A stretch of 64,000 nucleotides of DNA, taken from positions 448,001 through 512,000 of the forward strand of contig CAVSCK010000003.1 in the NCBI GenBank assembly GCA_963726455.1. Direction: 5' to 3'. The stretch's first letter is position 1. Every line of letters starts with the position of its first letter. This document shows positions 33,073 through 53,177 of the stretch, piece after piece. This DNA comes from an uncultured bacterium. Its GTDB lineage: Bacteria > Zixibacteria > MSB-5A5 > CAIYYT01. The notes beneath the pieces were generated by a model, which had not been told where the DNA came from, searched no databases, and was given only the letters and a program-made list of their open reading frames with translations. A program made the position numbers and the translations under genes.

Positions 33073-34149
33073 TCAACTACTTCCGGGAAACTTGTCATCT
33101 CTGACATTGACTGAGATTTTCAGTTTCCCCGGGGCTACATCGGTTACTTTGGCATAGCCACCGCCGTCGAGTTTGCCTTCCTTGACTTCTCCGGACGGCA
33201 AAATCACGCGATATTTCTTGTCGCCGATGGCGTTACCTTCTTTATCCTTGAGCTTGAATTCCAGATCATCCACGTATTCCAGCAGGCCGGAGCGTTGTGT
33301 CAGGGTCGACGTCTTGGCGACAAAGTAGTAGGCCGGCGACGAATAACCACCGCCCTTCAACTTCTTTTCCTGGAGCTTGAGGAAGTCCTGGTCAACGACG
33401 AGTTCCCACTCGCCTTCGATCTTGTCGCCCTTAACGGTAGTTTCTATCTGCTTGAGAACCTGGTCGGGGAAGTTAGTGTCCCGGACGTGCACCTCCAGAA
33501 ATGCCTTTTGCCCTTCGGGAACGCCGGTGGTCTCAGCAGTCATTTGAACCTTCTCCCCTACCTTGGCGGAGTCTTTGGACCACTTGGCGCTGATGATCGC
33601 CCTGATTTCGATGTCGTAATTGCCGGGATCGATGTTGGCTTGCTTGACGCTGCCGGTCAGCGGCGATACACTCTTATTGCTCGATGGCGAGGTCAACTCA
33701 TATTCGGCGCCGGTGATAGGGAATCCGCCATTATCTACAATGGCGACATCCAAAAAATGTCCCTCCGGCTTTTCCATCGCAGCAGTCGCTGCCTCGGCCT
33801 CGGCGCTCTTCTCACCACCTCCGGTTCCGGCTCCTGCACCGGGGCTCATCGCATCCCCAATAAGCACAGTAGGGCAACCCATAGCGATACTGTCGGGCGG
33901 GCCTGCACAAAGCACCGGGTCACCGACTCGCGCGGCAGGCATATTGCCAATCATGACGCTGGCGCTGCCTTTCAGAATCGGGCCACCAACGTGCGGTGGT
34001 GGTGGAACACCCGGATTGAGCAGAGGACAGATATGGTTGTCTCCCATCCGGGCAGCCGGCATACCGCCGATTAGGACCATAGGAAATCCAACCATAATTG
34101 TTCCACCATGAACGGTCGAGTCAAATTGTCTGGCTGCGGGTTGTCCCAT
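33073..34149 (-). CDS. PAAR domain protein with C-terminal transthyretin-like/Ig-like extension
   Basis: Three PAAR motifs (GQPAAR, GMPAARMGD, NMPAARVGD) with His/Cys Zn ligands; C-terminal YRVILPSGEVKEGKLDGGGYAKV. Confidence 0.92.
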   Translation of the reverse strand: MGQPAARQFDSTVHGGTIMVGFPMVLIGGMPAARMGDNHICPLLNPGVPPPPHVGGPILKGSASVMIGNMPAARVGDPVLCAGPPDSIAMGCPTVLIGDAMSPGAGAGTGGGEKSAEAEAATAAMEKPEGHFLDVAIVDNGGFPITGAEYELTSPSSNKSVSPLTGSVKQANIDPGNYDIEIRAIISAKWSKDSAKVGEKVQMTAETTGVPEGQKAFLEVHVRDTNFPDQVLKQIETTVKGDKIEGEWELVVDQDFLKLQEKKLKGGGYSSPAYYFVAKTSTLTQRSGLLEYVDDLEFKLKDKEGNAIGDKKYRVILPSGEVKEGKLDGGGYAKVTDVAPGKLKISVNVRDDKFPGSS

Positions 34150-34331
34150 AAATCAGGCGCTATCTCCCTAATCGGTTTTACGCTGATATAGTCGTGGCTA
34201 CTGCCCTATGGTTCAAGCAAAGAAGCGCTTTCAGTTGACCGACAGAATTTAGCGTAGCAGCAGCGTTCCGTCAACATTCAATTTGAGCTGTACTGGAGGC
34301 ATTGCGCGGAAATCGCTTGATCTGCGCGAGA

Positions 34332-34901
34332 CTAGTTGTGTTCGGAGCTGGCTGTAGCCGCGTTCTTGGTGTTGGAGGATGATTCCTTGAGCGGGAGTCC
34401 ACACACCGGGCAGTACAAGTACTCTTTTTCGACCCATTTGTGGCCGTATTCGCACTGCTTTACCTTATGCTTCTGGTCGATGTAGACGTCGTCCCAGTCG
34501 GCTAGTATGGTGTAGTAGAGAGTGTTGCCCGAAACCCGCAGCGCCAGCGAAATTTCCTCTACCTTACAGATGGTCTCGCCGTCACATTCCAAGTAAATAG
34601 GGATCTTCTGCGTGGAAATCAGTTTCTCGGGACCACCCTTGGCAGGCCGCTCTGATTCACGGGATTCGATTTCGATTGTGGTCTCGCCGGTTCTCCCCAA
34701 AAAGACCAAGCTGCGCAAGGTCGTGACCTTGTCCACCGTCATACCCCATGAGGCAATTGATTGATTCGGTAACGCCGAAGTCGATTGGCCACCCTTGTAG
34801 TAACGGGTAGTCGTGATTTTCATGTCGGCGCGCAAATCTGATGCCAAGGCAAAGGCCAATGCAAGCGATACTATTAGCAGACTTGACGAGATTTTTCTCA
34901 C
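34332..34901 (-). CDS. Secreted hypothetical protein with C-terminal zinc ribbon
   Basis: Signal peptide; CEYGH...YCPVCG. Confidence 0.65.
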   Translation of the reverse strand: MRKISSSLLIVSLALAFALASDLRADMKITTTRYYKGGQSTSALPNQSIASWGMTVDKVTTLRSLVFLGRTGETTIEIESRESERPAKGGPEKLISTQKIPIYLECDGETICKVEEISLALRVSGNTLYYTILADWDDVYIDQKHKVKQCEYGHKWVEKEYLYCPVCGLPLKESSSNTKNAATASSEHN

Positions 34902-34996: not shown

Positions 34997-37045
34997 TTAC
35001 GTCGTTTCAACCCTTTGGCAAAGCAATTTGTGTTCCGTAACCGGGCTAATTCCGACCACAAAACGGTGGACAATTCTGATTTCCGTCTTGCCGCGATAGC
35101 GATCATCCAATCTCCGGACGAATTCCTGGGCTACGCGGTCTCGTTCACCGGGTTGGAGCGAGTGATAAAAGGTCGTGCCGGCGCCGGATTTCATGACATG
35201 GTCATATACTTCCTGTCCGGAGTGTGCCAGGAAATCGAATGTCCCTTCGTTCAGCCAGTCGATGTCAAATCCGAAGTTCCGCAAATGCTCTTCAGTTTCT
35301 TTCGCGTCTAAAGGGAATTTCATCCGAACAGCCTTAGTCAGGATATCGGGCTCTTCTCGCACGATTTCCTCGAACAGTTCCAGTGGGACCTCGGGCGAGC
35401 GATCCAGGTGCGCGACGAAGGCGATAACGCCTCCGGGCTTCAGGATTCTTTTCAGCAGCGGGAAGATTTCCTCGCAGCCGACATAGCCGATAAGCCAGGT
35501 CATGGTGGCAACATCAACCGATTGCGCCGGCAGCTTACGCAATTCCACTAATACGTCACCGATGCGAAATTCGACGTTCCCCAAACCAAGCGTTCCGAGC
35601 CGTTGTCTTGCTTTTTCCACCATACCTTCGGTGAGATCAATGGCGATGACTTTGCCTGATGTCCCGACCATCCCCGCCAGCTTGGCAGTTGAGTATCCGG
35701 TGCCACAACCGCAGTCGACTGCGACCGAACGGGGTTTGATTTGGAGTTTCGCAAACATGTAGTCGATAGGCGCTGATGCTACCGACAACCAATAGTCTTC
35801 GTAGGTCTGGCTGGCGGAATTGTATCCTTTGACAATTTCGGCGTTGCCTGCGAGCTCGGAATTCTGTCCTTCCAGAATTCTGAAGAATCGCGGCGGCTCC
35901 TCCTCGGGAAGCGGCATTGGCGGCACCGTTTCCACACGGGCGGGTCGACAATGTTTGGAGCATTCGGAGAAATATCCACGTAACTGGTGGGCAAGACAGA
36001 TACTGTATGGATGCGTGATGTCGGCCTGCATGCGAGACATGATTACTCCCAAGTCCTCTTCAAGCACATTGCCGTAGGATATCGGCATCATGTTGCAGGG
36101 AGACACCTCTCCGCTGCCGTCAACGTAGATGTGTGAGTGCCCGGCGCCACAACCAAAGAACTCGGGAGACTCCATGTGCGCAAATGACGAGATGGGTGCG
36201 CTCTTCTCCTGTACATTGTATTCGGCCATGAGTTGAAACACGCGGGCGAATTCCAGTTCACCAAAGCCGATATCGCTGTTGATAATCCTACCGGCAGGCG
36301 CAGGTTCGATCAATTGGAGTTCATCGACGCCTAGACTTGTATTCAGCTCCACCAGTTTTCGGAAGTTGTCCCCTTCGAGAAGTCTTCTGGTCGGCACTGC
36401 GCATGTATAAGTGTAGAAGCCGTGCTTCTTCGCAAGCTCGATAGCTTTGAGAGCAATCTTGAACGCACCGAGACGTCCGCGGCGAGTGTCGTGTTCGCCT
36501 TCGTCGGCGGAATCGAGACTGATTGAGACAGAGTAGACGCGAGTTTCGCGCAACCGACACGCCAATTCGTCGTTGAATCCATAACCGGTAGTAGCCAAGA
36601 CGCCGCAGGAGTCTTCGCGTAAGCACGAGACTATTTCCACCAGGTCATTGCGCAAGCATGGTTCGCCGCCCGTGAAGTTGACGACGATTGCTCCCAATTC
36701 CTGCAGGCGCGTAACGACCTTCTGGAGTGCATCGGTTGACAGGTCGGACACGACCCGTCCGGCGTTGTAGCAGTGCCAGCAGTTGAAGATGCAGGCGTTG
36801 GTTAGCGCCAGGTCGACTGATTGTATCGGAGTTCTCTTGTCCGCGCCGAAGTAGGTCGCCATGAAACGGTCGAAGGGTTTGCCGGGAAAAGGCGGAATGA
36901 AGGTGCTGATAACATATTGATTGCCATATTCGCGCACGCGCTCGATTTCCAGAAAATCACGGAGGTACTGGTACAGCGACGGCGTGAAGAGGCGCATATC
37001 AACGCCCTTCATGAACTCATTCAAGAAATGCTCGTTGTTCGTCAT
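34997..37045 (-). CDS. Radical SAM/SPASM-twitch domain fused to class I SAM methyltransferase
   Basis: CIFNCWHC, FTGGEP and CGAG..YVDGSGEVSPC, then VDCGCGTG..VIAIDLT..LKPGG. Confidence 0.9.
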   Translation of the reverse strand: MTNNEHFLNEFMKGVDMRLFTPSLYQYLRDFLEIERVREYGNQYVISTFIPPFPGKPFDRFMATYFGADKRTPIQSVDLALTNACIFNCWHCYNAGRVVSDLSTDALQKVVTRLQELGAIVVNFTGGEPCLRNDLVEIVSCLREDSCGVLATTGYGFNDELACRLRETRVYSVSISLDSADEGEHDTRRGRLGAFKIALKAIELAKKHGFYTYTCAVPTRRLLEGDNFRKLVELNTSLGVDELQLIEPAPAGRIINSDIGFGELEFARVFQLMAEYNVQEKSAPISSFAHMESPEFFGCGAGHSHIYVDGSGEVSPCNMMPISYGNVLEEDLGVIMSRMQADITHPYSICLAHQLRGYFSECSKHCRPARVETVPPMPLPEEEPPRFFRILEGQNSELAGNAEIVKGYNSASQTYEDYWLSVASAPIDYMFAKLQIKPRSVAVDCGCGTGYSTAKLAGMVGTSGKVIAIDLTEGMVEKARQRLGTLGLGNVEFRIGDVLVELRKLPAQSVDVATMTWLIGYVGCEEIFPLLKRILKPGGVIAFVAHLDRSPEVPLELFEEIVREEPDILTKAVRMKFPLDAKETEEHLRNFGFDIDWLNEGTFDFLAHSGQEVYDHVMKSGAGTTFYHSLQPGERDRVAQEFVRRLDDRYRGKTEIRIVHRFVVGISPVTEHKLLCQRVETT

Positions 37046-37052
37046 ATTCTTT

Positions 37053-37319
37053 TCATTCTTTCTGAACCGAATGGTTCTCCAATGGATGTTGCCCGATCAA
37101 CCAAACCCCAGCTTTCAGAACTTGAGCGAGAGAGAGCATTCTGACAAAGATGCGCCGGGCACGGCCAAGGGCGCACAAAATGCAGCCACCTGCGATAGCT
37201 GCCCACGCAAAGAGCGTCGTCGTAAGTATCATCAGGAGACAATCGATCAAGGCGTTACCGATAGCGGTCAATTCCTTCTCGATCAAGTCGCCGCCGAGTT
37301 CAATGATTCCGTAATTCAC
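37053..37319 (-). CDS. Small membrane protein
   Basis: GTGA overlap with the upstream stop and AAGGAG RBS; one hydrophobic helix; fills the gap to the radical SAM gene. Confidence 0.55.
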   Translation of the reverse strand: MNYGIIELGGDLIEKELTAIGNALIDCLLMILTTTLFAWAAIAGGCILCALGRARRIFVRMLSLAQVLKAGVWLIGQHPLENHSVQKE

Positions 37320-38215
37320 AGTCTGGCTCCTTCCGGCAGTTTCAGCAGCGGCGTTGAAGATCGCGACCTCACCTCCGCCGTCGCGAAGAAGTAGCTGTCT
37401 TCGATGTGATCCGTGCCGCTGTAGAGAATGTTGGCCTCGCGCATGCTGACGATTTTGATGTCTCCATAGCCAACGCTGGATAGAATGGATTTCATGCGAT
37501 CCGGGCGGCTCGAAAATGTCAACGGCTCGTTAATCGAATTGCAGAGTTCGATCAATTGACGATTGCCCTGATAGTCGGTCTCATTGTCGGTTAGTTCCGG
37601 CGGAACGAAGTCGAAGGTGATGCGATTATTCGGGCCCAGTTCGGCAAGACGGCCAAGAGTCTCGGCCACGATATTCTCATTCAGGAAGAGTGTGACGCCT
37701 TCCCAGATAGAAAGCGTGCGCTTGTGCCTTGCGAATCCGGCGGCTAGGAGCTTGTCGTTAACAGAGTCCTTCGAGAAATCGGTGGCGACATACGTCACAT
37801 TAGCCGGCAGCCGGCCAAACAGGCGGCGGGTGAGCGCTTTCTTTATTTGCTGTGTCGATTCCAGATCTAGTTCAAAGACCTGGGCACGGCGAAATTCCGG
37901 CATGCGGAAGTAGCGGCTGTCGTACCCGGCTCCGAGAAGAACGATCTGCTCGAAACCTTCGTTGAGGCAGTCGCGGGCGAAGTCGTCCATAAAGCGCGCC
38001 CGCAGAACAATGGCTTTGCGAACGGAAGGGTTAATCACTTGCATCATGCCGACCATCTTCATCCCTTCCTGACCGGCGTAGTACGGCGCGAGTGGATCGG
38101 CGATTACGCGTTTCTCTGCGGGCAACGAACACTCAAACGCCTTCGCTCCCGCCGACCAGCGCGCAAAGAGAAACCCGCATGGTTTCTCAACTGTTTTGCT
38201 GTATACCTGCTGCAT
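37316..38215 (-). CDS. SAM-dependent methyltransferase, leucine carboxyl methyltransferase/TIGR00027-like
   Basis: DPLA, RARFMDD, QIVLLGAGYDSR, VFELD and IWEGV motifs; start at ATG 38215 with GAGG RBS. Confidence 0.88.
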   Translation of the reverse strand: MQQVYSKTVEKPCGFLFARWSAGAKAFECSLPAEKRVIADPLAPYYAGQEGMKMVGMMQVINPSVRKAIVLRARFMDDFARDCLNEGFEQIVLLGAGYDSRYFRMPEFRRAQVFELDLESTQQIKKALTRRLFGRLPANVTYVATDFSKDSVNDKLLAAGFARHKRTLSIWEGVTLFLNENIVAETLGRLAELGPNNRITFDFVPPELTDNETDYQGNRQLIELCNSINEPLTFSSRPDRMKSILSSVGYGDIKIVSMREANILYSGTDHIEDSYFFATAEVRSRSSTPLLKLPEGARL

Positions 38216-38234
38216 GGCTTGTACCTCTCTCCCT

Positions 38235-38948
38235 TTAGTATTTCCTGTCAAAGACCGGTTTGAGTACGCCGATGCCAAGGAGCACCGGGTTGACAAATAG
38301 CTGCACGCAGATAGCGAGCAGCAACACCCAGTAGATGATGGCTGGCGCCTGATCGAGCATGACGAACACCGGTATGAAGAAGATCGTCGTCAGGTAATTG
38401 ATGATGCTCTTGTAACCCGGTTTCCAGTGCGTGGTGACGAGGCAATTGATGGGGTAGTGCACGGGCGAAACGGTGAGCACGATCAGAGTGGCTACGTAAA
38501 TCGTCGGATATATCGGCGGCAACTGCAGGAAGTAGAAAGCGAAGACGGAGAAGAACACCGGCGGTGCACCGACAGAATAGCCGTTTGCCAGAAAGCTTTC
38601 TTTGCGCGAATACTTCGAGGATGCCGCCATCGCAGCGCCAACCACCAACCAGACTCCGACGCCCTCAACGAACAGGCCGGTCTTCCAGAACAACATCATC
38701 GGCACGAAAGTCAGTCCGACGAGATCAGTGATAATATCCAGTACTTCGCCGGAGGTACCCGGAAATTTGTCTTTGATTTTGAACTTGCGCGCAAGAGTGC
38801 CATCGAGACGGTCGACTAACAGGACCAACAGACTAAAACGCGCCGCAGCGTCGTAGCTGCCATCAAGCACCGCCATCATGGCCAGCGCGGCAAAGCCAAG
38901 TCCAACCAAGGTCAGGATATGCGGTCCGTAATAGAGATACTTCTTCAT
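38235..38948 (-). CDS. CDP-alcohol phosphatidyltransferase, phosphatidylcholine-synthase-like
   Basis: PHILT and DRLDGTLARK...GEVLDIITD...FVP signature. Confidence 0.85.
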   Translation of the reverse strand: MKKYLYYGPHILTLVGLGFAALAMMAVLDGSYDAAARFSLLVLLVDRLDGTLARKFKIKDKFPGTSGEVLDIITDLVGLTFVPMMLFWKTGLFVEGVGVWLVVGAAMAASSKYSRKESFLANGYSVGAPPVFFSVFAFYFLQLPPIYPTIYVATLIVLTVSPVHYPINCLVTTHWKPGYKSIINYLTTIFFIPVFVMLDQAPAIIYWVLLLAICVQLFVNPVLLGIGVLKPVFDRKY

Positions 38949-38961
38949 GACGACTTTCCTT

Positions 38962-39702
38962 TCATATTCCCATCAAGCGCCCCAGCCAGTAGGCCACCGG
39001 GGCGGAGACGATCAGACTGTCGAAGCGGTCAAAGATTCCACCATGACCCGGCAAAAGTCCGGAGAAATCTTTGATTCCAAGTTTGCGTTTTATCAGTGAG
39101 AAGAGCAGGTCACCGACCGTGGCGGCAGAGGCGATGGCGAAACCCATGATAGCGGCTTGGGTCTCAGTCAGGTTGGAGATTTGGGGCGCCATCGCCAAGG
39201 CGCCGACCACAGCTGTCCCCGCTCCGCATAACATTCCTTCCCAGGTTTTTCCGGGGCTTAGTCGGGGGCAAAGTTTATGGGTGCCGAGCAATCGGCCCCA
39301 GAGTTGTGCAAAACTGTCTGTCATCGAGACAAGCAGGAAGACGAGAGCGAAATCAGGGAACCATTGATCGCTGGTTCCAATCAACAGATGGGAAAGCAAG
39401 ACTACCACGAGAGCACCAAATAGAATACTCGCCGTGGTTGCGATGAAAGTTCGGCGGTTTAGTACGCGGATCATCTCGATGGTGCCTATCACTGCAATGG
39501 TCAGGAGCACGGCGGCCAGTAAACCGCGCCCGATCCATGCGAAAGTGAGAACACCGACGATGATCGCCGCATAAACGCAATATTTTGTCCAGTCCTCACA
39601 GCGACGAAATCCCGTCACCGATTGAATTCGGTGCGTCAGTGTCATCAGGGAGGCGCCGACGGCGAACAAGCCGGTGACCATGAAGACAAGAGCGGTGTTC
39701 AT
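38962..39702 (-). CDS. Phosphatidate cytidylyltransferase family (CdsA-like)
   Basis: LSPGKTWEG and GDL..SLIKR..GIKDFSGLLPGHGGIFDRFDS motifs. Confidence 0.92.
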   Translation of the reverse strand: MNTALVFMVTGLFAVGASLMTLTHRIQSVTGFRRCEDWTKYCVYAAIIVGVLTFAWIGRGLLAAVLLTIAVIGTIEMIRVLNRRTFIATTASILFGALVVVLLSHLLIGTSDQWFPDFALVFLLVSMTDSFAQLWGRLLGTHKLCPRLSPGKTWEGMLCGAGTAVVGALAMAPQISNLTETQAAIMGFAIASAATVGDLLFSLIKRKLGIKDFSGLLPGHGGIFDRFDSLIVSAPVAYWLGRLMGI

Positions 39703-40631
39703 TGTGCCCTCCCGAAGGACGCCGGCACAATCAGATTGACGGCCGAGGGGAGGACGCGAAATTCGAATGCATAACCGCGCTCATGAACTTGACCGTCCCC
39801 GAATAGCAGCATGGGTTCGGATGACCGGATACTTAAGGATGATTCGCGCAGGCGAACGACGTTTCCGGAGCAGTTATTGGCACCGGTGACTGTAGATAAC
39901 ACAGATTGCAGCAGTGAGTGACGATCATGGTTGTCGGTAATGGCGAACAGGTCGAGGTGGCCATCGCAATTGGAGGCCGCGGGCGCGACTTGGAATCTGC
40001 CTCCCAGAAACGGCTGGTTGGCGATGATGACCGAATATGCTTCGCCTTTCCAATCAGATTGATTCCCGTGAAGAGTCAAAGGAATCCCACGACGGGTACT
40101 GCGGCGATAGATAAGCGCCAAGGCCAACAGATAGAGCTTACTGCCAAATACGCGAGCTACCAGTTCTCCGGCTACGCCGGCTTTCCGGATTGATTCGGCT
40201 TCCTCGACAGCACAACACGGCAGGCCGAATCCGGCGACAGTGAGAAAACACCAGCCGTTGACGCTAATGGCGTCGACGCGCCGAATGTGGCGCCTTCCTA
40301 TCACTTGACACGCAGATCGCAGGTCGGTCGGAATATCATGATAGTTTGCCAGGTCATTCGCGGTGCCGGTCGGGATCAAGCCGACTGCGACGTCATGCCC
40401 GATGCAGCCGTTAACTACTTCGTTGATCGTACCGTCACCGCCGACCGCGACAATGGTGTCGCAGGCGTGCATACAAGCATCACGAGCCAACTCTGTTGCG
40501 TGGCCCGGAAAATCAGTCCAGGTGATGGCTCGCTGCTCAAGTGCGAGTAACTGGCGAAGCCGTTCGGTGAAACGCCGGGGTCGCCCTTTGCACGTCCGTG
40601 GATTTATGATGACCTGAGTTTGCATATTCAT
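39699..40631 (-). CDS. Soluble diacylglycerol/lipid kinase family (DgkB/YegS-like)
   Basis: IINP, GGDGTINEV, PTGTANDLA, N..FLGG and GDG motifs. Confidence 0.9.
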   Translation of the reverse strand: MNMQTQVIINPRTCKGRPRRFTERLRQLLALEQRAITWTDFPGHATELARDACMHACDTIVAVGGDGTINEVVNGCIGHDVAVGLIPTGTANDLANYHDIPTDLRSACQVIGRRHIRRVDAISVNGWCFLTVAGFGLPCCAVEEAESIRKAGVAGELVARVFGSKLYLLALALIYRRSTRRGIPLTLHGNQSDWKGEAYSVIIANQPFLGGRFQVAPAASNCDGHLDLFAITDNHDRHSLLQSVLSTVTGANNCSGNVVRLRESSLSIRSSEPMLLFGDGQVHERGYAFEFRVLPSAVNLIVPASFGRAQ

Positions 40632-40646
40632 TCTCTCGCGGCGTTG

Positions 40647-41768
40647 TCAGGCAGCGTGCGGCACTGCCTTTCCCCAATCGACGGCGAAGCAGTAGTCAAG
40701 CAAGGTGTCGAAGTAGCTCGAAAACTGCGGCAGACTGATTCCACTTCCACTTAGCGCCTCAAGCGTGTTGGCATCGTCGAAGCGGCGGACGACTTTCAGA
40801 TAGGGTTCAAACACGGACATCAATTGCAGAGTGCGAGAGTTGGGAGGTTGGATGTTGTCTTGAGCGTTACCGAAAGCCGGAAGATGAAGCTTATCCGCAG
40901 TTGCGTGTTTCCGCAAATAGCCCAGGAAATGGCCGACGATGTTGCCGACTGCGGGAGCGCCATCGGCCCCTGAGACGAGGTGATATATCTTGCCATTCGA
41001 GTCCGTATGCAAGAATATGTGGGTAATTGCCCGAGCGACATATTCGAGCGGGACTACGTCAAGCGGAGTGGCGGGATTGCAGGTTAAAGACTTAAGAACT
41101 CCCCGATAGATCAGCCGCAGCGGCGAATAGAGCACGTTGAAAGACAATGTCCGGCCTGTCTGCGAATCACCGACTACAATGCTGGGACGGAAGATCGTGA
41201 TCGGCAGTTCTGGCATCAGCGAACGAACATGTTGCTCGGCCTCAAACTTGGTGGCTTCGTAGCTATTGGAAAAGCGGCAGGGCTGTGCCGGTTCATCTTC
41301 ATAGATGTGACCCTCACGATCGCCGCAGACATAAGCAGTACTGATATGCGCAACTTTTTCCAGCCGACCAATCCTGGACGCCTGCTGTGCGAGTTCCATG
41401 ACGTTGCGGGTACCGAAACAGTTGATCTGGCGGGCACATTCCAAAGGCAAAGTGAATTGAACGGCTGCCGCTGAGTGGATAATGTGCGTGACAGTCGAGG
41501 CGAGATCCTGCCAATCGGCGTCGGACAACCCAAGCATTGGCTGAGCGATATCACCACAGACAACCCGGACACGATCTTCGAATTGGGCCAAGTCGAGTTC
41601 CCGGTCGAGAACCTGGACGGCCTGTTGCAGCCGTTCTTTCGCGGCCGATTTCGAACTTCCTCTGACAAGCGCAACGATTTCGGTCTCTGGCTCGTTGGCC
41701 AGAATCGTCAGAAGAATCTTTCCACCGATGTTCCCGGTGGCGCCGGTTATTAGTATCTTTGCTGACAT
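40647..41768 (-). CDS. Extended SDR, fatty-acyl/thioester reductase-like (NAD_binding_4)
   Basis: ITGATGNIG, HSAA, HISTAYVCG, NSYEATK and RPSIVVGDSQTG motifs. Confidence 0.88.
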   Translation of the reverse strand: MSAKILITGATGNIGGKILLTILANEPETEIVALVRGSSKSAAKERLQQAVQVLDRELDLAQFEDRVRVVCGDIAQPMLGLSDADWQDLASTVTHIIHSAAAVQFTLPLECARQINCFGTRNVMELAQQASRIGRLEKVAHISTAYVCGDREGHIYEDEPAQPCRFSNSYEATKFEAEQHVRSLMPELPITIFRPSIVVGDSQTGRTLSFNVLYSPLRLIYRGVLKSLTCNPATPLDVVPLEYVARAITHIFLHTDSNGKIYHLVSGADGAPAVGNIVGHFLGYLRKHATADKLHLPAFGNAQDNIQPPNSRTLQLMSVFEPYLKVVRRFDDANTLEALSGSGISLPQFSSYFDTLLDYCFAVDWGKAVPHAA

Positions 41769-41815
41769 TGTCCTACCTCGTGAATCGCTACTGGTTTCAT
41801 AACGACCAGCGTTAA

Positions 41816-41832
41816 AGCAATCCCAATGCCAG
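41816..41832 (-). promoter_or_regulatory. Sigma54 -24/-12 promoter of the lipid operon
   Basis: Minus strand CTGGCATTGGGATTGCT (GG-N10-GC), 48 bp upstream of the ATG. Confidence 0.75.
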
Positions 41833-42188
41833 CCAACGCTGAATGACTAGTTCATGCTGTGAGCCAAAGAGATAGCCCGTTCTTGAGGTCACCGCTTCTG
41901 ACATAATGTGAGCCGCCGTGGGGTATCATATATCCAGCCGAAGAACTTCGGTAACCATCTGATCACCGGCAAATGCCGAAAAGACAGGCATTTTCAAACT
42001 TGTATTGCGGCGGGCTCTGCTCTATCTTCAGAGCGACATCAATTCGACAATCAAGGTGACGGGATGGCGATTGCGTACGGGAAAGTCCCTTGGTAACAGC
42101 TAATTTGGGGTGTGACAAAGTTCTTAGGAAAAGGTGTTACGACTTGGCGTCAAGTTGTCTCTGAAATCACGCTCAGCGGAGGTACCGA

Positions 42189-44012
42189 ATGAAATTGCCA
42201 TCGATACAGCAGGTCTGGCTTGAGGCCGGTCGAACGGCAAAAAGATTCCCATTGGTGCTAATCGCGACCACGATTGGAACGATTGCCGCTCTAATTTTGG
42301 TCGATCACGATTATTCCAAGGAAGGCACCTTTTTGAATGGAGTTCTACTCGCATCAGCCCTCGGTGCGATGTTATTGACCGGCGCGGTGCTGGTAGGAGA
42401 AAAGGGCCGACGCGGCAAACTCATTTTCTGGGCGATGCAAATCCTAAGTATCCTGCTGCTGGTCGGATATGCTTTCACAATCCCATTGAAACTTGTTGGA
42501 GCGCCACTTTTTCACGTTGTGCAGTTTCAGCTCTTCTGTTTTGCGCTGGCGCTGCTGGTGTCTGTCGGGCCGTTCCGCTCACCCGGTGAATTGAATGGAT
42601 TCTGGCAATATAACAAGACACTGGTCTTCAGAATTCTAACGTCACTACTTTTCGCGGGTGTCCTGTATGCCGGCCTTGCCATAGCGCTGGCGGCGCTGGA
42701 CCATCTGTTCGGCGTTGATATAGCCGGGAAGCGGTACTTCGAACTGTGGGTATTGATTGCAGGTATATTTGCTCCCTGGTTCTTTCTCGCCGGAGTACCC
42801 GAGGATCTGGATGCTTTAGAAAGCGTCAGTGAGTACTCCAAGGGTATAAAGGTATTCGCGCAATATATCCTCTCCCCGATCGCCCTGGTCTATTTCGTTA
42901 TTCTCTATGCCTACATCGTGAAGATTCTGCTCGAATGGAACTGGCCCAAGGGTTGGGTTGCAGAACTAATCCTTGGCTTCGCCGCTGTCGGTCTGTCGAC
43001 GTTAGTGCTGCTGTATCCGGTTCGCGAGCGGCCGGAGAACAAGTGGATCAGAGTTGCAACGCGCTGGTTCTTCCGGCTGATGATCCCGTTGATAGTTGTC
43101 TTGATCCTTGCGGTCTGGCGTCGAATCACGGATTACGGAGTTACGGAAGAAAGATATTTCGGTATTGCACTGGCCGTTTGGCTCGCAGTGGTGGTGGTGT
43201 ATTTCCTGGTCAGTAAAGCGAAGAGTATTAAGATTCTGCCCGGGTCAATGTGTATTCTGCTGCTGGTAACGAGCGTCGGGCCGTGGGGTGCCTTTTCCGT
43301 TTCCGAGAACAGCCAGATTGGGAAGCTGCGTATGTTGCTCGAAAGAAACGCCATGCTTGTCAACGAGAAAATCGAAAAGGCGCCCGCGACATTGCCTTCC
43401 GGCGACAAGGAACAGATTTGGTCAATTGTGCATTACCTCAACGGGATGCACGGCCTGGAAGATATTCGTCCCTGGTTCGAGGAAAAGATTGTGCCTGACT
43501 CCACCGGCATCCGTCCCAAGAAATTGTCGACGTCCATCGCGTTCGATCTGATGGGAGTCGAGTATGCCGGAGTCTGGCGAAGTGCCGCTTCGGACCAATT
43601 CATTTTCAATTCCGGATCAGACAACGCGGTGGACGTTGCCGGATTTGACCACTGGATGCCAAGGCAACAATTCGGGTCCAGTCCTGCAAAACCTGCCTCT
43701 CAGGGAAGCGAATTACTTTGGAGGACGAATACCGAACTTGACACGATCATGTTCTTTCTGCGCAAGGATAGCGTCAGTATAGATTCTATAGAGATATCGA
43801 TTCAGCCGCTTATGACAAGCTTGCTGAGCCAGTACGGCAACGCGAATGTCGAGGATGTCCCGCCTGACCAGATGTCAGTCGGCGCCGCAAGTCAAACAAT
43901 GCGCGTCAAGATGTTCGTGAATTCATTTTCCTTTAGAAGAGATGGTGACAAATTGATACCGATCTGGTATTCGGCCAACATCTTCTATTCGGTGGGCAGC
44001 CGGACGGAATGA
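42189..44012 (+). CDS. DUF4153 family membrane protein
   Basis: KRFP at the N-terminus, many TM helices, YFVILYAYIVKI..W.WPKG, RITDYGVTEERY and GPWGA motifs. Confidence 0.85.
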   Translation: MKLPSIQQVWLEAGRTAKRFPLVLIATTIGTIAALILVDHDYSKEGTFLNGVLLASALGAMLLTGAVLVGEKGRRGKLIFWAMQILSILLLVGYAFTIPLKLVGAPLFHVVQFQLFCFALALLVSVGPFRSPGELNGFWQYNKTLVFRILTSLLFAGVLYAGLAIALAALDHLFGVDIAGKRYFELWVLIAGIFAPWFFLAGVPEDLDALESVSEYSKGIKVFAQYILSPIALVYFVILYAYIVKILLEWNWPKGWVAELILGFAAVGLSTLVLLYPVRERPENKWIRVATRWFFRLMIPLIVVLILAVWRRITDYGVTEERYFGIALAVWLAVVVVYFLVSKAKSIKILPGSMCILLLVTSVGPWGAFSVSENSQIGKLRMLLERNAMLVNEKIEKAPATLPSGDKEQIWSIVHYLNGMHGLEDIRPWFEEKIVPDSTGIRPKKLSTSIAFDLMGVEYAGVWRSAASDQFIFNSGSDNAVDVAGFDHWMPRQQFGSSPAKPASQGSELLWRTNTELDTIMFFLRKDSVSIDSIEISIQPLMTSLLSQYGNANVEDVPPDQMSVGAASQTMRVKMFVNSFSFRRDGDKLIPIWYSANIFYSVGSRTE

Positions 44013-44042: not shown

Positions 44043-46652
44043 ATGCAAGAGGATAATGACAATAAGCAATCCGTAGGCACTCTTTCACCGGGAAGCGACG
44101 TCGGTCATTACCAGGTCATAGACATGATCGGCAAAGGTGGCATGGGAGAAATCTACCTTGCTGACGACCGGCAACTACAACGACAGGTGGTGCTGAAGTT
44201 CCTGCCGGCTCATCTCGCCGTCGACAATGATTGTCGGACGCGCTTCCGGCAGGAAGCACAGGCAGCCGCCAAGCTGAACCACCCTAATATCGTTACCATC
44301 TACGAAGTCGGCGAATACGGAAGTCGGCCGTTTATCGCGATGGAGTATATTCACGGCCGCACTCTGCGTGATATCCTGCTTGAGGGACCAATGGCGCCTG
44401 TGCGTGCCGCCGAAATCATTTGCCAAACGTGTCAGGGATTGCAAGCGGCACATGAAGCCGGAACTGTCCACCGGGATATCAAACCCGCAAACATAATGCT
44501 CGATGACAAAGGCCGAGTGCGTCTGCTTGATTTCGGTCTGGCGAAAGCGTTGTGCTCCGAGCTCCCCAGTCAATCGCAGGCAACCGCCGGTACCGTGAAC
44601 TATCTCGCACCCGAAGTTTTGACTGGCGGAGCAATTACGCCGGCGTCCGACTTGTTTTCGCTCGGTGTGGTGCTGTACCAAATGCTGGCAGGACAACTGC
44701 CCTTTACCGGCGATTATGAAGCTGCCGTCCTTTATGCGATTGTCAACGAAGTGCCGCGAGACGTCCGAGACATAAATCCGCGCATTCCGGAACGCCTCGC
44801 CGCTATAGTCGACCGGCTTCTACAGAAGGATCCGCTCAAGCGATTTCAGTCCGCTCAAGAAGTTAGAGAAGCGTTGAGTTGCCGGTCGGAAGAAACGCAG
44901 AAGGAGATTCCAGTTCAGGTAAAAAGATCGGTTCGTAATCGACTCGTATATTACACCACCGTCACGGTGCTCATAGTGGTCACGAGTATTAGTGTCTGGA
45001 ATTACGCCAATAAGCCACCTGCCGGCGCAACAAGTAAGAAAGTGCTCGCAGTCCTGCCATTTGATAATCTGGGTTCTGCTGACGATGACTATTTTGCAAA
45101 TGGCATGACCGACGCTGTGGCCGCCAATCTGGCGAACTCTGGTGAAATAGCCGTGATTCAACGCGCCGGCACCATGTCATATCGGAAGAGTGTCAAGACT
45201 TCGCAGCAAATCGGGACAGAGCTGGGAGCAAAGTACCTTCTTACCGGAACGATTCAGTGGGACAAGGCAGTCGTGCCCGGCCAAATTCGCATTACCGCCG
45301 GCCTGATCAACGTTGAGCGTGGCAATTATCTCTGGCGACAACAATACGACCGCTCCATTGACCGAGTGTTCTTAGTACAGTCTGATATAGCCAATCAGGT
45401 CACTCGTTCCTTGAAGATCGAAGTACGGAGTGAGGCATCGTCAAGTGTAGCCGCTCAACCCACTGAGAACCTCGAGGCATACGACTATTACCTGAGGGGT
45501 AACGACTACTTCAACCGCAGTTGGGAGTTGAATGACATACGAAGCGCGATCCAGATGTATCAGCGTGCCGTCGAACTTGATTCAACGTTCGCGCTTGCCT
45601 ATGCAATGCTGTCCCGAGGCCACTCCAGTATGTACTGGGAATACTTCGATCATTCCGATCAGCGCCGCGCCACAGCGGAAGAAGCCGTCGCCCGAGCGTT
45701 GACACTTCAGCCCCAACTGGCAGAGGCACACCTGGCCAAAGGATACGTCTCTTATCACTGCTACCTGGATTACAGCGCCGCGCTGCGTGAATTCGACCTG
45801 GCCCTCAAAGGACAGCCGAATAACGCCGACCTCTACAACGCCATCGCGGCGGTGCAGCGTCGACAGGGGTTGCTGCAACAGGCATCGCAGAATTTTGCCA
45901 AGGCGTTGGAGCTGGATCCGCGTTCGCCGTTGCGCGCCTTTGACGTCGGGCTGACATTCGGCATGATGCGCCAATTTACTTCGGCGGACGAGTATCTTGA
46001 TCGCGCCATTTCGCTGGCCCCGGACTGGCCGCTGGCGTACATCTATAAGGCCTGGCTGGCAATATTCGAAAATGGAGACACCGCCCAAGCAGACCAGGTG
46101 CTGGCATCTGCCTCCGGCAAGGCAGATTTGTCGCGCTCGAAATATTATTGGTGGCTGCTGAGAATAATCGAACCGAATACTGAGAGACAACTGACTGAAG
46201 TCAACCTGGGGAGTGATACGGCGGCCTACTATCTTCAAGTCGCCGAAATCAATCGCTTGCTAGGGCAACGTCAGGCCGAAGCTGTCTTTGCTGATTCTGC
46301 CCGGCGGCTGCTCGAACCGCAACTCAAGTATTTCCCCGAAGACGCGCGCGTACACAGCTACCTTGGGCTGGCATACGCCGGCCTTCGACAGAAGGGCAAG
46401 GCGCTGATGCATGGTGGTAAGGCGGTCGAGCTTATCCCGACAACGCGTGAGGCCTTTGACGCGCCTTTCTGGATAATGAATCTTGCCGAATCAGAGGTAA
46501 TCTTCGGCGAAAACGATTCCGCTGTCAAGCACCTGGGAATACTGCTGTCAATTCCCGGCTTTGCGACCAGCACTTACTTGAAGCTGGACCCAATCTGGAA
46601 GCCCCTGCGAGGTAATCCCGGTTTTCAGCAACTGATACAGCCGATCTCATAA
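44043..46652 (+). CDS. Ser/Thr protein kinase - TM - TolB_N-like - TPR
   Basis: GKGGMGEIY, HRDIKPAN, DFGLA and APE; VLAVLPFDNL..DYFANGMTD; PTENLEAYDYYLRG TPRs; terminal LDPIWKPLR. Confidence 0.92.
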   Translation: MQEDNDNKQSVGTLSPGSDVGHYQVIDMIGKGGMGEIYLADDRQLQRQVVLKFLPAHLAVDNDCRTRFRQEAQAAAKLNHPNIVTIYEVGEYGSRPFIAMEYIHGRTLRDILLEGPMAPVRAAEIICQTCQGLQAAHEAGTVHRDIKPANIMLDDKGRVRLLDFGLAKALCSELPSQSQATAGTVNYLAPEVLTGGAITPASDLFSLGVVLYQMLAGQLPFTGDYEAAVLYAIVNEVPRDVRDINPRIPERLAAIVDRLLQKDPLKRFQSAQEVREALSCRSEETQKEIPVQVKRSVRNRLVYYTTVTVLIVVTSISVWNYANKPPAGATSKKVLAVLPFDNLGSADDDYFANGMTDAVAANLANSGEIAVIQRAGTMSYRKSVKTSQQIGTELGAKYLLTGTIQWDKAVVPGQIRITAGLINVERGNYLWRQQYDRSIDRVFLVQSDIANQVTRSLKIEVRSEASSSVAAQPTENLEAYDYYLRGNDYFNRSWELNDIRSAIQMYQRAVELDSTFALAYAMLSRGHSSMYWEYFDHSDQRRATAEEAVARALTLQPQLAEAHLAKGYVSYHCYLDYSAALREFDLALKGQPNNADLYNAIAAVQRRQGLLQQASQNFAKALELDPRSPLRAFDVGLTFGMMRQFTSADEYLDRAISLAPDWPLAYIYKAWLAIFENGDTAQADQVLASASGKADLSRSKYYWWLLRIIEPNTERQLTEVNLGSDTAAYYLQVAEINRLLGQRQAEAVFADSARRLLEPQLKYFPEDARVHSYLGLAYAGLRQKGKALMHGGKAVELIPTTREAFDAPFWIMNLAESEVIFGENDSAVKHLGILLSIPGFATSTYLKLDPIWKPLRGNPGFQQLIQPIS

Positions 46653-49889: not shown

Positions 49890-51470
49890 TTATTCTTTTC
49901 CCGCATTGATCCCAAAGCGCGCCATCTTTTCTTTGAGCCCTTTGCGAGTCAGGCCGAGGGCGTTTGCCGTTCTGAGGATATTGCCGCTGTTCTCTCTCAA
50001 GGTTCCCGTGATGAGATCGCGCTCGACTTCTTCGACGATGTCGCGCAGCTTCCCGTTCCGGTTTCGCCCGGCCGGTTGCTGGATTGCGGCAGTGCTGATG
50101 ATTTCCGGCGAGAGATCGTTGACGTCGATGACCCCGTCGTCGTGGCTCACAACGGCTGCACGTTCGATTTCATTTTCCAGTTGGCGTACATTGCCTGGCC
50201 AGGAATAGTTGCCCAGTGCTTCCAGCGCCCTGGCCGTAATCGAAAGATACTCGTTGCCGAGTTTGATTCGCAGCTTTTCCAGAAAGTGGTGCACCAACAT
50301 TGGAATGTCGTCGCGGCGTTGGCTCAATGGCGGAAGATCGATGGTGAAGGTATTCAGTCGATAGAAAAGATCAGCACGGAAGTTGCCCCTGGCGATTTCC
50401 TCTTTGAGGTCGCGATTGGTGGCGGAGATGACCCTCACGTTGACATACTCCGTGCGTGCCGATCCGACCGGCCGGGTCTCACCGGATTCAATTACGCGCA
50501 GCACCGCCACCTGAGTCGAGGGAGGCGCTTCCCCTATTTCGTCGAGGAAAATCGTGCCGCCGTCTGCTTCCCGAAACAGGCCCGGTTTGTCTTTGTCGGC
50601 GCCGGTAAATGCGCCTTTGACGTAGCCGAAAAGCTCCGCTTCCAGAAGTGACTCCGTCTTGATGCCGCAATTCTTGACCACGAACGGTTTGCCGCGCCGA
50701 TCGCTATTGTGATGTATCGCCCGCGCCATCAATTCCTTGCCGGTTCCGGTAGCGCCGGCTATCAGCAGTGGTGAGTCATTGCCGGCAACTTTAGAGGCGA
50801 GTGTCAGCACGCTCTTAAGCGCCTGCGACTTCCCGATTATGTTTTCGAAAGAAAAAGTGGCATCCAGTTCTGCTTTAAGACGAATATTTTCCTCATGCAG
50901 TCGCCGCCTCGAAACTTCCAGCAATTCTGCCTTGCGAGAAAGTTCCGTCATGAGTATGGCATTCGATAGAATGTGTGCTGATTGCGAGATGATTATCCCG
51001 GCCAGCCGGCACTGTTCATCGCTAAACGGCCCACGTGCCGCATCACGCACCAGACTGGTTAAACCGATGACCTCTCCACGAACGACCATGGGGCAGCACA
51101 GAATGGATTTGAAGCGGCCATCTTCCGACGACAGGCCGTGAAAGCGTTCGTCGCTGTCCAGATCGTCTACCTTGAGCAAGCGATTGTTCTTGAGAACCCA
51201 GCCCGAAACAAGACTACTGACCTTGTATGGCATCTCACCTGGTTCGGAATGACTGCCGCGGATAACCGTGGTCATGTTGTCGTCCTTTTGCGGCTGCAAG
51301 AGATTGATCACACCTTGGGAGGCCGCAGTCAGACCAATCAACTCGTCGATGATAATCGACATCATGTGGTTGGTCTCGCGTGCCCGACAGACGCGGTCGA
51401 CTACTCGATTGATGCTCTTGAGTTCATCAAGAGCAGACTGCAATCGTTGCAGATCGCTTTCTTCTGCCAT
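49890..51470 (-). CDS. GAF-domain sigma54-dependent Fis-family activator
   Basis: GAF domain; GATGTGKE, ELFGYVKGAFTGA, FLDEIG, FRADLFYRL, WPGNVRQL; C-terminal HTH. Confidence 0.95.
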   Translation of the reverse strand: MAEESDLQRLQSALDELKSINRVVDRVCRARETNHMMSIIIDELIGLTAASQGVINLLQPQKDDNMTTVIRGSHSEPGEMPYKVSSLVSGWVLKNNRLLKVDDLDSDERFHGLSSEDGRFKSILCCPMVVRGEVIGLTSLVRDAARGPFSDEQCRLAGIIISQSAHILSNAILMTELSRKAELLEVSRRRLHEENIRLKAELDATFSFENIIGKSQALKSVLTLASKVAGNDSPLLIAGATGTGKELMARAIHHNSDRRGKPFVVKNCGIKTESLLEAELFGYVKGAFTGADKDKPGLFREADGGTIFLDEIGEAPPSTQVAVLRVIESGETRPVGSARTEYVNVRVISATNRDLKEEIARGNFRADLFYRLNTFTIDLPPLSQRRDDIPMLVHHFLEKLRIKLGNEYLSITARALEALGNYSWPGNVRQLENEIERAAVVSHDDGVIDVNDLSPEIISTAAIQQPAGRNRNGKLRDIVEEVERDLITGTLRENSGNILRTANALGLTRKGLKEKMARFGINAGKE

Positions 51471-51678
51471 CGCCGCCTTCCGAGTAAAAGGTCAATGTTT
51501 CCCGCTCAATATGCACAAACATTGAATCTCAGGTCAAGCGCAATTCCGACTGGCACCCAGGTACCCAGCATCGCATGCCCACTGGCTATCCCCTACCCAT
51601 TCGCCAGTCGTCTCAACGGCATCCTACTTTGCTCGATACTCGTTGAACAACAACGCACTGAATGTAAGTTCATGAGAT

Positions 51679-51694
51679 TGGCATCGTGGTTGCT
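51679..51694 (+). promoter_or_regulatory. Sigma54 -24/-12 promoter
   Basis: TGGCATCGTGGTTGCT (GG-N10-GC), divergent from the sigma54 activator. Confidence 0.75.
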
Positions 51695-51785: not shown

Positions 51786-53177
51786 ATGAGAGGAATCTCA
51801 CTACTTGCAATCGGCCTGACATTGATTGGGCTGTTGCTTGCGGGCTGCGAGAAAAACTACAATCCCGTGGCCGCTCCCGAGACGGACTCGCCCGTTGCGT
51901 TGGCGCCGCCAATTGAAATTCGCGAACTGGAAGCCAACAGCGTTGCGGATGCGGTCCGAGTTGCTCCGACGCCGATGGTGACGGTATCGGTCGGCGAGAG
52001 CATGCTGGAATTCTGGCCCTATACCGGTACCAACTTTGCCGGAACGCCCCAGGACCCCATCAATTTGATCTTTTACGGCAATGCCGATCCACGCGACATT
52101 CGTGCAGCGTTGCTGTCTCTGAATGGCGATCGCACGGCGCTTGGTTTCCCACCGGCGCCACCGTTCAATTCGACATGGGACGACGCCATTGGCGACGTGC
52201 AAACTGCATACGGTGGTATGCTCGGAGATGGTCCTTCGATGTCAACCAGCCCCGACGATCACGAGACGCCGGACAGGTCCTGCCATGACCGGGACTGGAC
52301 TGGAAGCACGATCCAACTGGCTTGCGGACCGTACGAAGGCATGCGCTTTCACTTGCGGCTGTTCAAGCTCGGTTGCTGGACGGTAGCAAACGCGCACCTT
52401 GACGTTCTGATTCCGGGGACGACCGATCATCAGGTCGTCAGTTGGGAAGTGGCAGAACAGTTTGTCATTGCCGATTTCATGCGCAGTGGGCTGCTCGATG
52501 AAACCACACCGATGATCCCGACGGGTCAGATCAACGATTCGCCGTTCAGAACCATTCCGGCGATCATTTACAACGGATTCCCGCCTGAACTTCGCGCCTT
52601 GATCGGTGGACCGATGTCCGATGTCACTGAGGACGTTCCTATCGGCACGGACGGACGCGCGGTTATTCTGAACCTCGCCCAAAAGGCCGAGCGCGTTGCG
52701 GAAGTGCGGACGCAGGACTTTGTCATCAACTTCAACCAGGCAATTCCCAAGCCCTTCTGCTCAAACGGGCCTACCGATTACGTGTTTGTTACCGGGCCCG
52801 TGCATTTGGTTCAGACCGCTCGCCTGACGCGTGCCGGAGTGTACGAAGTTGGCTTCTCCGCCACCGGGACCCTGAATGCCGTGCCGATTGATCCGACTAC
52901 CGGCCAACCGACTGGCGCGGCCATGCAGGCGTATGTTCGCGAAACCCATTCCGGGTTGATGAACAAGAATTTCTGTTCGGCAACAAGCAGCAAGTACCAG
53001 AAGCTAGGCCAAACTGATGATCCGAATGGCGGCCGCAGCTTCACGCATCTTATGGTCAATTCCTCCGGATTGAACAAATTTTCCGAAGACACCCGTTGCG
53101 GATCAGATCGATTCGACAATAGTGACGAGCGTTTCGCAAGATCAACCACTCCCGACCTGGCGCCTGATGAGCAATAG
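51786..53177 (+). CDS. Lipoprotein of unknown function
   Basis: GAGG RBS and lipobox LLAGC; DPINLIFYG motif. Confidence 0.75.
   Translation: MRGISLLAIGLTLIGLLLAGCEKNYNPVAAPETDSPVALAPPIEIRELEANSVADAVRVAPTPMVTVSVGESMLEFWPYTGTNFAGTPQDPINLIFYGNADPRDIRAALLSLNGDRTALGFPPAPPFNSTWDDAIGDVQTAYGGMLGDGPSMSTSPDDHETPDRSCHDRDWTGSTIQLACGPYEGMRFHLRLFKLGCWTVANAHLDVLIPGTTDHQVVSWEVAEQFVIADFMRSGLLDETTPMIPTGQINDSPFRTIPAIIYNGFPPELRALIGGPMSDVTEDVPIGTDGRAVILNLAQKAERVAEVRTQDFVINFNQAIPKPFCSNGPTDYVFVTGPVHLVQTARLTRAGVYEVGFSATGTLNAVPIDPTTGQPTGAAMQAYVRETHSGLMNKNFCSATSSKYQKLGQTDDPNGGRSFTHLMVNSSGLNKFSEDTRCGSDRFDNSDERFARSTTPDLAPDEQ

Follow-up and report, generated by a model that had tools for sequence, protein, structure and literature searches.

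The window analysed here, a stretch of 64,000 nucleotides (nt) from an uncultured soil or sediment bacterium of the Zixibacteria (assembly GCA_963726455.1, contig CAVSCK010000003.1, positions 448,001 to 512,000), carries a compact operon of five lipid genes behind a predicted σ54-dependent promoter. Our reading, which we consider quite possible and hold tentatively, is that this operon makes an undescribed phospholipid on signal, by coupling cytidine diphosphate (CDP)-diacylglycerol to an alcohol produced by a stand-alone thioester reductase, with subsequent carboxyl methylation. The type of pathway, in which a CDP-activated lipid meets an alcohol, is known; what appears to be new is the head group or the lipid alcohol, together with the partner enzymes and the regulon. 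A preliminary description, made from the sequence of the window, was aware of no described pathway that uses these genes together, and none was found in the full-text literature, a search that left subscription journals mostly, and supplements, uncovered.

The preliminary description placed seven open reading frames (ORFs) behind a consensus −24/−12 promoter and presented them as a single, tightly coupled pathway. All seven ORFs and the promoter are present as placed (Table 1), and in the ORF listing of the window the seven are co-directional on the minus strand. Family scans agree with its assignments of the reductase, kinase, CdsA-like, Pcs-like, LCM and radical S-adenosylmethionine (SAM) genes, and with its observation that the operon lacks an acyltransferase gene: no acyltransferase family matched any of the seven ORFs in the Pfam and NCBIfam scans. 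The tight coupling holds for genes 1 to 5, which form a block of approximately 4.5 kb with intergenic gaps of 15, −4, 13 and 19 nt. It does not extend further, as a spacer of 270 nt separates gene 5 from the radical SAM gene.

Table 1 Features of the operon and its co-conserved neighbours (positions in the window; aa, amino acids; SDR, short-chain dehydrogenase/reductase)
Feature	Position	Strand	Remarks
Gene 1, stand-alone thioester reductase, extended SDR, NAD_binding_4	40647..41768	−	373 aa; 7e-63
Gene 2, YegS/DgkB-type soluble lipid kinase	39699..40631	−	310 aa; DAGK_cat and YegS_C
Gene 3, extra CdsA-type cytidylyltransferase	38962..39702	−	246 aa; CTP_transf_1, 7e-45
Gene 4, Pcs-related CDP-alcohol phosphatidyltransferase	38235..38948	−	237 aa; CDP-OH_P_transf
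Gene 5, LCM-fold (TIGR00027) SAM-dependent methyltransferase	37316..38215	−	299 aa from the ATG at 38215
Spacer with doubtful small ORFs (37053-37319, 88 aa; 37042-37242, 66 aa)	37046..37315	−	
Add-on gene, fusion of Radical_SAM with SPASM-like part and class I methyltransferase	34997..37045	−	682 aa
Candidate upstream activator site TGGATATATGATACCCC, imperfect TGGATA-N5-TATCCA palindrome	41920..41936	−	
σ54-type −24/−12 promoter TGGCATTGGGATTGC (= TGGCATtgggaTTGC)	41817..41831	−	pattern match
Ser/Thr protein kinase, TPR repeats and TolB_N-like part, divergent	44043..46652	+	869 aa; co-conserved
σ54 activator, GAF - AAA+ - HTH_8	49890..51470	−	526 aa; co-conserved
Second regulatory region	51583..51693	+	palindrome-like site 51583-51599; −24/−12 match TGGCATCGTGGTTGC at 51679-51693
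Lipoprotein, signal peptide with LLAGC lipobox, no recognisable fold	51786..53177	+	463 aa; co-conserved

Conservation was assessed at 15 loci fetched from genomes positive for the Pcs-like protein, or 16 loci with the window. The five genes lie together, with their order kept, at 13 of the 15 fetched loci; the exceptions are L121, in which the reductase is unmatched, and L126, which is interrupted by the end of a contig. The conserved unit is accordingly five genes and not the seven of the pathway first proposed. Cluster conservation, which had been put forward as a check of that pathway, was found for the first five genes, which travel together; the radical SAM fusion and the small ORF do not travel with them. 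In L121 the region 8274-11503 has, besides the genes for CdsA, transferase and methyltransferase, a kinase gene called as 444 aa, and at 6341-7253 of L125 the lipid kinase match is split over two frames, maybe through a frameshift or an assembly error. Conservation within the block is highest for the Pcs-like transferase and the methyltransferase (62-85% identity) and lower for the reductase, kinase and CdsA (31-62%). As judged from gene content, the block is an accessory trait in the phylum, because the Pcs-like gene occurs in only 22 of 285 genomes and 16 of 130 genera, at 63-84% protein identity. Clustering of all ORFs of the 16 loci further revealed co-conserved neighbours, namely homologues of the σ54 activator (12/16 loci), of the Ser/Thr kinase with TPR repeats, which adjoin the block (11/16), and of the lipoprotein gene (9/16). 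A structural model of the lipoprotein has a mean pLDDT of 66 and gave no Foldseek match at E ≤ 0.001.

The CdsA-type cytidylyltransferase and the CDP-alcohol transferase of the operon are additional copies, because the genome also contains a housekeeping cdsA, located on another contig in the context frr-uppS-cdsA, and six other CDP-alcohol transferases. The extra CdsA scores 154 bits with the Pfam family CTP_transf_1 (cut-off 24 bits) and 95.9 bits with the equivalog PRK11624 (cut-off 385 bits). Its catalytic C-terminal half aligns with the housekeeping copy (40% identity over the C-terminal 122 residues only), including the stretch KR..KD..PGHGG.DRFD, which is the signature of the CdsA family. 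The lipid kinase carries a GGDGT motif and scores 116.9 bits with TIGR00147, against a cut-off of 118.65 bits; its best solved relatives are YegS and the bacterial diacylglycerol kinases, at approximately 65 bits.

The best NCBIfam models for the transferase are five Pcs models, which span nearly the whole protein at 79, 70.6, 49.8, 47.3 and 45.9 bits. None of the respective cut-offs (400, 400, 300, 440 and 350 bits) is reached, and serine-type models are weaker still (33 versus 79 bits). The motif D46-x2-D49-G-x2-A-R-x12-G67-x3-D71-x3-D75 is invariant in 18 sequences, and its x12 spacing is typical of Pcs. The clade is isolated, with six members among 1.84 billion representatives at E ≤ 1e-30; a single full-length representative scores 360 bits and the next full-length one approximately 99 bits. 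No related solved structure was found at E ≤ 1. Longer, fused forms of the Pcs-like protein were sought and not found, a negative of little weight.

The reductase possesses the motifs GATGNIGG and Y-E-A-T-K and scores 212 bits with PF07993 and 165.6 bits with TIGR01746, the latter under the cut-off of 213.35 bits. Its nearest solved structure is that of the terminal reductase MxaA (118 bits); next come the reductase domain of a polyketide synthase (PKS), a carboxylic acid reductase and a fatty acyl-CoA reductase. The methyltransferase is placed in TIGR00027 (156.4 bits, above the cut-off of 93.55 bits), and its only solved relatives are Rv0731c and ML2640c. These two are described as small-molecule carboxyl methyltransferases that are inactive on an alcohol mimic, and Thr20 and Tyr/Phe194 are given as landmark residues of OPCMT-like enzymes (PMC10193983). 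F177 of the methyltransferase is invariant and aligns with the Tyr of E-G-L-L-M-Y in ML2640, which corresponds to the Tyr/Phe194 landmark as given there.

A transferase clade 50-51% identical to that of the window occurs in two other gene contexts, L144 and L178, hereafter the sister modules. In L144, a metagenomic locus, the order is kinase, CdsA, BtaA-like gene, Pcs-like gene and a homologue of 3-hydroxy-3-methylglutaryl coenzyme A (HMG-CoA) reductase that scores 345 bits (cut-off 442 bits); a MacB/FtsX-type ABC pair, a diaminopimelate-decarboxylase-like gene and GNAT-type genes lie downstream. In L178 the order is reductase, BtaA-like gene, Pcs-like gene, kinase and CdsA, and the NAD_binding_4 reductase is 35% identical to that of the window. 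Both BtaA-like genes are of the DUF3419 family, the family under which homologues of betaine lipid synthase are annotated (PMC10685587). Gene order had been equated with reaction order; the match holds within the Zixibacteria lineage and breaks down in L144 and L178. What appears constant across the three variants is the kinase, the CdsA, the Pcs-like transferase, a reductase from thioester to alcohol and a SAM-using, O-alkylating enzyme. The reductase role is filled by two unrelated folds, with L144 carrying the HMG-CoA reductase homologue in its place; both sister modules exchange the methyltransferase for the BtaA-like enzyme, and the SAM enzyme always adjoins the Pcs-like gene. Genes for MacB/FtsX-type exporters are found beside both sister modules.

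A metagenome scan for sister modules recovered three loci, only one of them with context, and no sister module was present in 168 genomes of the phylum of G285. The genome with L178 (G735) belongs to the same phylum as G455, the holder of L045 (titled Acidobacteriota), and among 401 genomes of that phylum it is the one close relative; the other 44 matches score 60-96 bits, and in none of the 13 of these that were fetched does a kinase, CdsA or reductase gene adjoin the match. One cluster member of the sister transferase clade is named Gemmatimonadota.

The operon is predicted to be σ54-dependent, given a promoter of the GG-N10-GC type, an rpoN gene in the genome and a nearby AAA+ activator. 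The promoter TGGCATtgggaTTGC lies 62 nt upstream of the first ATG and is one of three matches to the promoter pattern in the window, against 0.66 expected. The pattern GGCA[CT]N5[CT]TGC is found 51-65 nt upstream of the reductase start at 9 of 14 loci, with 0.019 expected per 300 nt, so that the consensus promoter first noted in the window is borne out by its conservation. All nine promoter-bearing loci also possess a palindrome (TGGATA-N5-TATCCA with at most three mismatches) upstream of the −24 GG, at a distance of 103-106 nt in eight loci and 124 nt in one. The palindrome is not enriched in total count relative to shuffled sequences (104 versus a mean of 106), and its weight rests only on this fixed position. 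A −24/−12 match precedes the lipoprotein gene at 5 of 9 loci, the activator genes at none of 12 and the kinase genes at 1 of 15. The GAF architecture of the activator is shared by the window and seven of the eight others tested, the eighth having a receiver domain. No Rfam family, riboswitches included, matched positions 33000-54000 at E ≤ 0.1. The third exact TGGCAYN5YTGC match of the window (34832-34846, minus strand) falls within the first codons of a 189-aa ORF (34332-34901); it might serve as a promoter of the PAAR genes downstream of the operon, or have arisen by chance.

Downstream of the methyltransferase gene, the seven-ORF region is less uniform. The small ORFs of the spacer (37053-37319 and 37042-37242) match no family, the protein shows no significant similarity to the products of genes at that position in relatives, and at the DNA level the spacer does not resemble the corresponding stretch of either congener, G003 or G001. 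The preliminary description had proposed a small membrane protein here; it is not conserved even within the genus, and the ORF is probably not a gene. Its interpretation as a remnant of the tandem 190-aa genes of relatives was rejected, since neither significant protein similarity nor DNA similarity was detected. In the congener G001 (L126), the methyltransferase gene is followed by five tandem 190-aa genes and then the 189-aa gene, with no fusion; G003 has four tandem genes and the fusion, and the window has the fusion and no tandem gene. The 189-aa gene that directly follows the fusion in the window is the gene that follows the tandem array in L126. On this comparison, the region between the methyltransferase gene and the 189-aa gene is a variable slot, because its contents differ among the window, G001 and G003. 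The tandem 190-aa proteins (L127 8544-11114; five copies in L126; L120 11474-12046), encoded between the methyltransferase and fusion genes, have a signal peptide, a GPGAGHAYA motif and a C-terminal ...LTLSF, match no Pfam family and are absent from the window.

For the radical SAM-methyltransferase fusion, the genome collection contains 158 relatives, whose record titles span at least ten phyla (Zixibacteria, Calditrichaceae, Ignavibacteria, Planctomycetota, Verrucomicrobiota, Sumerlaeota, Hydrogenedentota, Latescibacterota, Elusimicrobia, Syntrophales and Acidobacteriota among the titles). Neighbourhoods were counted at 80 loci kept from these relatives, or 81 with the window. Lipid genes are near the fusion at five of the 80 (four with transferase and methyltransferase, one with reductase and kinase only), and the remaining 75, from many phyla, are without the lipid block. 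Conversely, the fusion lies beside or near the block at 4 of the 16 block loci (the window, L119, L120 and L127); it is absent from the congener L126, and the whole block-bearing genome G008 has no orthologue (best E 4.8e-10). Radical tailoring, earlier proposed as a step of the pathway, is thus not part of the conserved chemistry. No neighbour family of the fusion recurs in more than 11 of the 81 loci. A −24/−12 match of its own is located at −50 to −60 of the fusion at 7 of 76 loci, the window not being among them. By its distribution the fusion is an independent add-on gene that landed in the variable slot. It is probably transcribed by read-through from the operon promoter, because the 270-nt spacer contains no promoter-like match and no strong terminator, only a single weak terminator-like hairpin.

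In the fusion protein, C85, C89 and C92 of the CX3CX2C motif are invariant in 18 sequences, as are C299, C317 and C350. The closest solved structure to its methyltransferase part is a plant phosphoethanolamine N-methyltransferase (86 bits; the next methyltransferase scores 62 bits), and this part has no invariant Cys outside the SAM motif. A precursor peptide was sought and rejected: at the 80 loci, no conserved small ORF was present within 700 nt, the clusters obtained being antisense or close-kin artefacts. An arsenic function of the ArsS/ArsM kind was likewise discarded, as the arsenite methyltransferase model scores 57 bits (cut-off 263 bits) and no ArsS model is in the best 25 families; the lead had come from a fusion cluster named ArsS in the Atlas (0.92, from features only). 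A MarR-like gene lies two genes upstream of the fusion at six loci (L059, L071, L077, L082, L083 and L089). At L015 (8829-9968 and 12063-13166; also L018, L020, L019 and L022) the fusion is flanked by genes for secreted endonuclease/exonuclease/phosphatase-family and Omp85-like proteins, and a histidine kinase and a receiver-type σ54 activator precede it.

The remaining genes around the operon are of more local distribution. A downstream set (24481-34901) is conserved within the genus; it encodes the secreted 189-aa protein, a protein with a PAAR domain (33073-34149) and one of 1128 aa that is OmpA-like in part, and it also contains ORFs that match no family, one of them again PAAR-like (26868-27899). 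A DUF4153 membrane protein (42189-44012, plus strand) is encoded between the Ser/Thr kinase gene and the operon, and the stretch 46773-49697, between the kinase and activator genes, contains a Peptidase_C92-like gene together with an ORF of 448 aa whose dockerin-like match is weak (E 0.0007, under the Pfam cut-off). These last three are not found at the corresponding positions of the other block loci.

We propose the following scheme for the block, in which each of the three core enzymes would carry out the usual reaction of its family. The GAF-domain activator would bind the palindrome approximately 105 nt upstream of the −24/−12 promoter and turn on the operon and, separately, the lipoprotein gene, with the co-conserved Ser/Thr kinase probably feeding into this control. 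The lipid kinase would phosphorylate diacylglycerol, the extra CdsA would convert the resulting phosphatidate to CDP-diacylglycerol, and the Pcs-related transferase would couple the phosphatidyl group to a free alcohol, in the way that Pcs does with choline. That alcohol, the head group, would come from the stand-alone reductase by four-electron reduction of an acyl thioester, and the LCM-fold enzyme would methyl-esterify a carboxyl of the head group before or after coupling. No acyltransferase would be needed, because the operon would itself provide the activated lipid and build the head group. That the lipid is diacylglycerol, and that the head group comes from the reductase, is favoured because the core enzymes keep their family marks and because of the exchange in L144: HMG-CoA reductase is an enzyme of small polar thioesters, and its homologue points to a substrate of that kind. 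The SAM enzyme always adjoins the transferase, and both proteins are better conserved than their partners, which leans the same way.

Several observations weigh against this scheme. A second CdsA is not obviously needed for ordinary phosphatidate beside the housekeeping enzyme, and an unusual lipid alcohol would account more readily for the dedicated kinase and CdsA; no alignment with the housekeeping copy was obtained for the N-terminal half of the extra enzyme. There is also a likeness between the reductase and fatty acyl-CoA reductases (PRK07201, 169 bits; structure 7eoz, 61 bits). The HMG-CoA reductase variant is known from L144, the single locus with context, at a score under the equivalog cut-off, and no score with a named equivalog model reaches its cut-off. 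BtaA acts on the hydroxyl of diacylglycerol and not on a head group, so that the methyltransferase and the BtaA-like enzyme may perform non-equivalent steps. The N-terminal region of the methyltransferase, which would hold the Thr20 landmark, could not be aligned.

The points on the kinase, the second CdsA with its diverged N-terminal half and the fatty acyl-CoA reductase likeness (here to the N-terminal domain of PRK07201-type proteins) are also what speaks for the route of the preliminary description, which would lead from a fatty alcohol or long-chain diol through an alkyl phosphate and a CDP-alkanol to a glycerol-free, single-chain alkyl-phospho lipid. In that route the reductase would act on acyl-CoA or on acyl carried by acyl carrier protein, the kinase and the CdsA paralogue would follow, the Pcs-like enzyme would add a common head-group alcohol and the methyltransferase would cap a carboxyl or hydroxyl. 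It better explains the need for a dedicated kinase and CdsA, it fits the absence of an acyltransferase from the operon and the gene order of the Zixibacteria lineage, and, HMG-CoA being a 3-hydroxyacyl thioester, a diverged homologue of its reductase could conceivably make a 1,3-diol. It nevertheless requires that three core enzymes all change their class of substrate while keeping their family marks; L144 and L178 depart from the gene order, an HMG-CoA reductase homologue is an unlikely producer of a fatty alcohol, the reductase is nearer to the terminal reductases of PKSs and non-ribosomal peptide synthetases (NRPSs) than to fatty acyl reductases (118 versus 61 bits), and the kinase and CdsA are among the less conserved members of the block. 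We regard it as a doubtful but serious contender. The bolder proposal that the operon and the sister modules form a new pathway family, in which the thioester reductase supplies an alcohol new to bacterial phospholipids and, in its boldest form, the lipid itself, we consider unlikely.

The travelling of kinase and CdsA with the transferase in all three variants would also be explained by a carrier cycle, in which a phosphatidyl-X, itself no end product, donates phospho-X to an envelope acceptor beyond the cytoplasm; the diacylglycerol set free would be returned to CDP-diacylglycerol by the kinase and CdsA, on the model of diacylglycerol recycling by DgkB during lipoteichoic acid synthesis. The co-conserved lipoprotein gene with its own σ54 promoter and the exporter genes beside both sister modules are in keeping with such a cycle; since the block shows no transferase of the LtaS or EptA kind, the lipoprotein has no recognisable fold and there is no known acceptor, we judge it improbable. 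A pathway of all seven genes, in which the fusion would produce or modify the head group (such as a methylated amine alcohol for the Pcs-like enzyme), draws on the shared strand, the spacer without clear promoter or strong terminator, the likeness to phosphoethanolamine N-methyltransferase and the four loci at which fusion and block meet. It is at odds with the 12 of 16 block loci, including L126 and G008, that lack the fusion, with the far more numerous fusion loci that lack the block, with the occurrence of fusion genes bearing their own −24/−12 match and with the variation of the slot among congeners, and appears very improbable. Least credible to us is ordinary supply, according to which the Pcs-like protein genuinely synthesises phosphatidylcholine or phosphatidylserine, CDP-diacylglycerol is boosted under stress by the kinase and CdsA and the other genes are unrelated. 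Relatives do bear the names 'phosphatidylcholine synthase' or 'phosphatidylserine synthase' at JGI, and the CDP-alcohol motif is intact; set against this are scores of 46-79 bits where Pcs cut-offs are 300-440 bits, the isolation of the clade from other Pcs-like proteins and the equal co-conservation of the reductase and methyltransferase, analogous enzymes of which join the triad in the sister modules.

The proposed phospholipid pathway shares elements with several known systems. With the Pcs route, in which CDP-diacylglycerol and choline yield phosphatidylcholine, it has in common a transferase closest to Pcs models and a motif with the long spacer; it differs in that this transferase is far under the Pcs cut-offs, forms a separate clade and travels with a reductase, a SAM enzyme, a kinase and a CdsA. 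Recycling by DgkB/YegS-type kinases followed by CdsA employs the same two enzyme families in the same reaction order, although here they are accessory paralogues in a regulated operon beside a housekeeping cdsA. The sister modules share the triad of kinase, CdsA and Pcs-like gene, a presumed four-electron thioester reductase and the SAM enzyme beside the transferase, and differ in having DUF3419 for the LCM methyltransferase, in gene order and, for L144, in the HMG-CoA reductase homologue and the decarboxylase, GNAT and ABC genes. Betaine lipid synthesis (BtaA/BtaB, BTA1) likewise involves SAM-dependent O-alkylation on a diacylglycerol-derived lipid, whereas the window operon is without DUF3419 and would use a CDP route based on phosphate; betaine lipids contain no phosphorus. 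The OPCMT-like methyltransferases ML2640c and Rv0731c resemble the operon enzyme in the LCM fold, in TIGR00027 and in Phe at the Tyr/Phe194 landmark; only the central 120 residues align, however, the N-terminal substrate domain being too different, and there is no steroid acid context. The fatty acyl-CoA reductases of wax ester and ether lipid pathways share the NAD_binding_4 fold and the Gly-rich and YxxxK motifs with the window reductase, which lacks the second domain of PRK07201 (373 versus 657 aa) and is nearer to PKS/NRPS terminal reductases. Family scans of the genes in the window found neither an alkyl-dihydroxyacetone-phosphate synthase nor a wax synthase near the operon.

The widespread radical SAM-methyltransferase fusion poses a functional problem separate from that of the lipid block. 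The regulon, with its GAF activator, a palindrome at fixed distance and two target promoters, offers a clean example of σ54 control in an uncultured phylum. Should the bolder, glycerol-free proposal be true, the product would be a natural, methyl-capped alkyl-phospho lipid without glycerol, the biological equivalent of the synthetic alkylphospholipids, and would be formed only after a signal had been passed on by a Ser/Thr kinase and a GAF-type σ54 activator. As the module is small and self-contained, it should be transferable to a laboratory host and its product readable by mass spectrometry. To our knowledge, the head groups of bacterial phospholipids are thought to be a short and closed list; this compact gene set with a clear on-switch, two variants of which occur in other phyla of soil and sediment, probably extends it.

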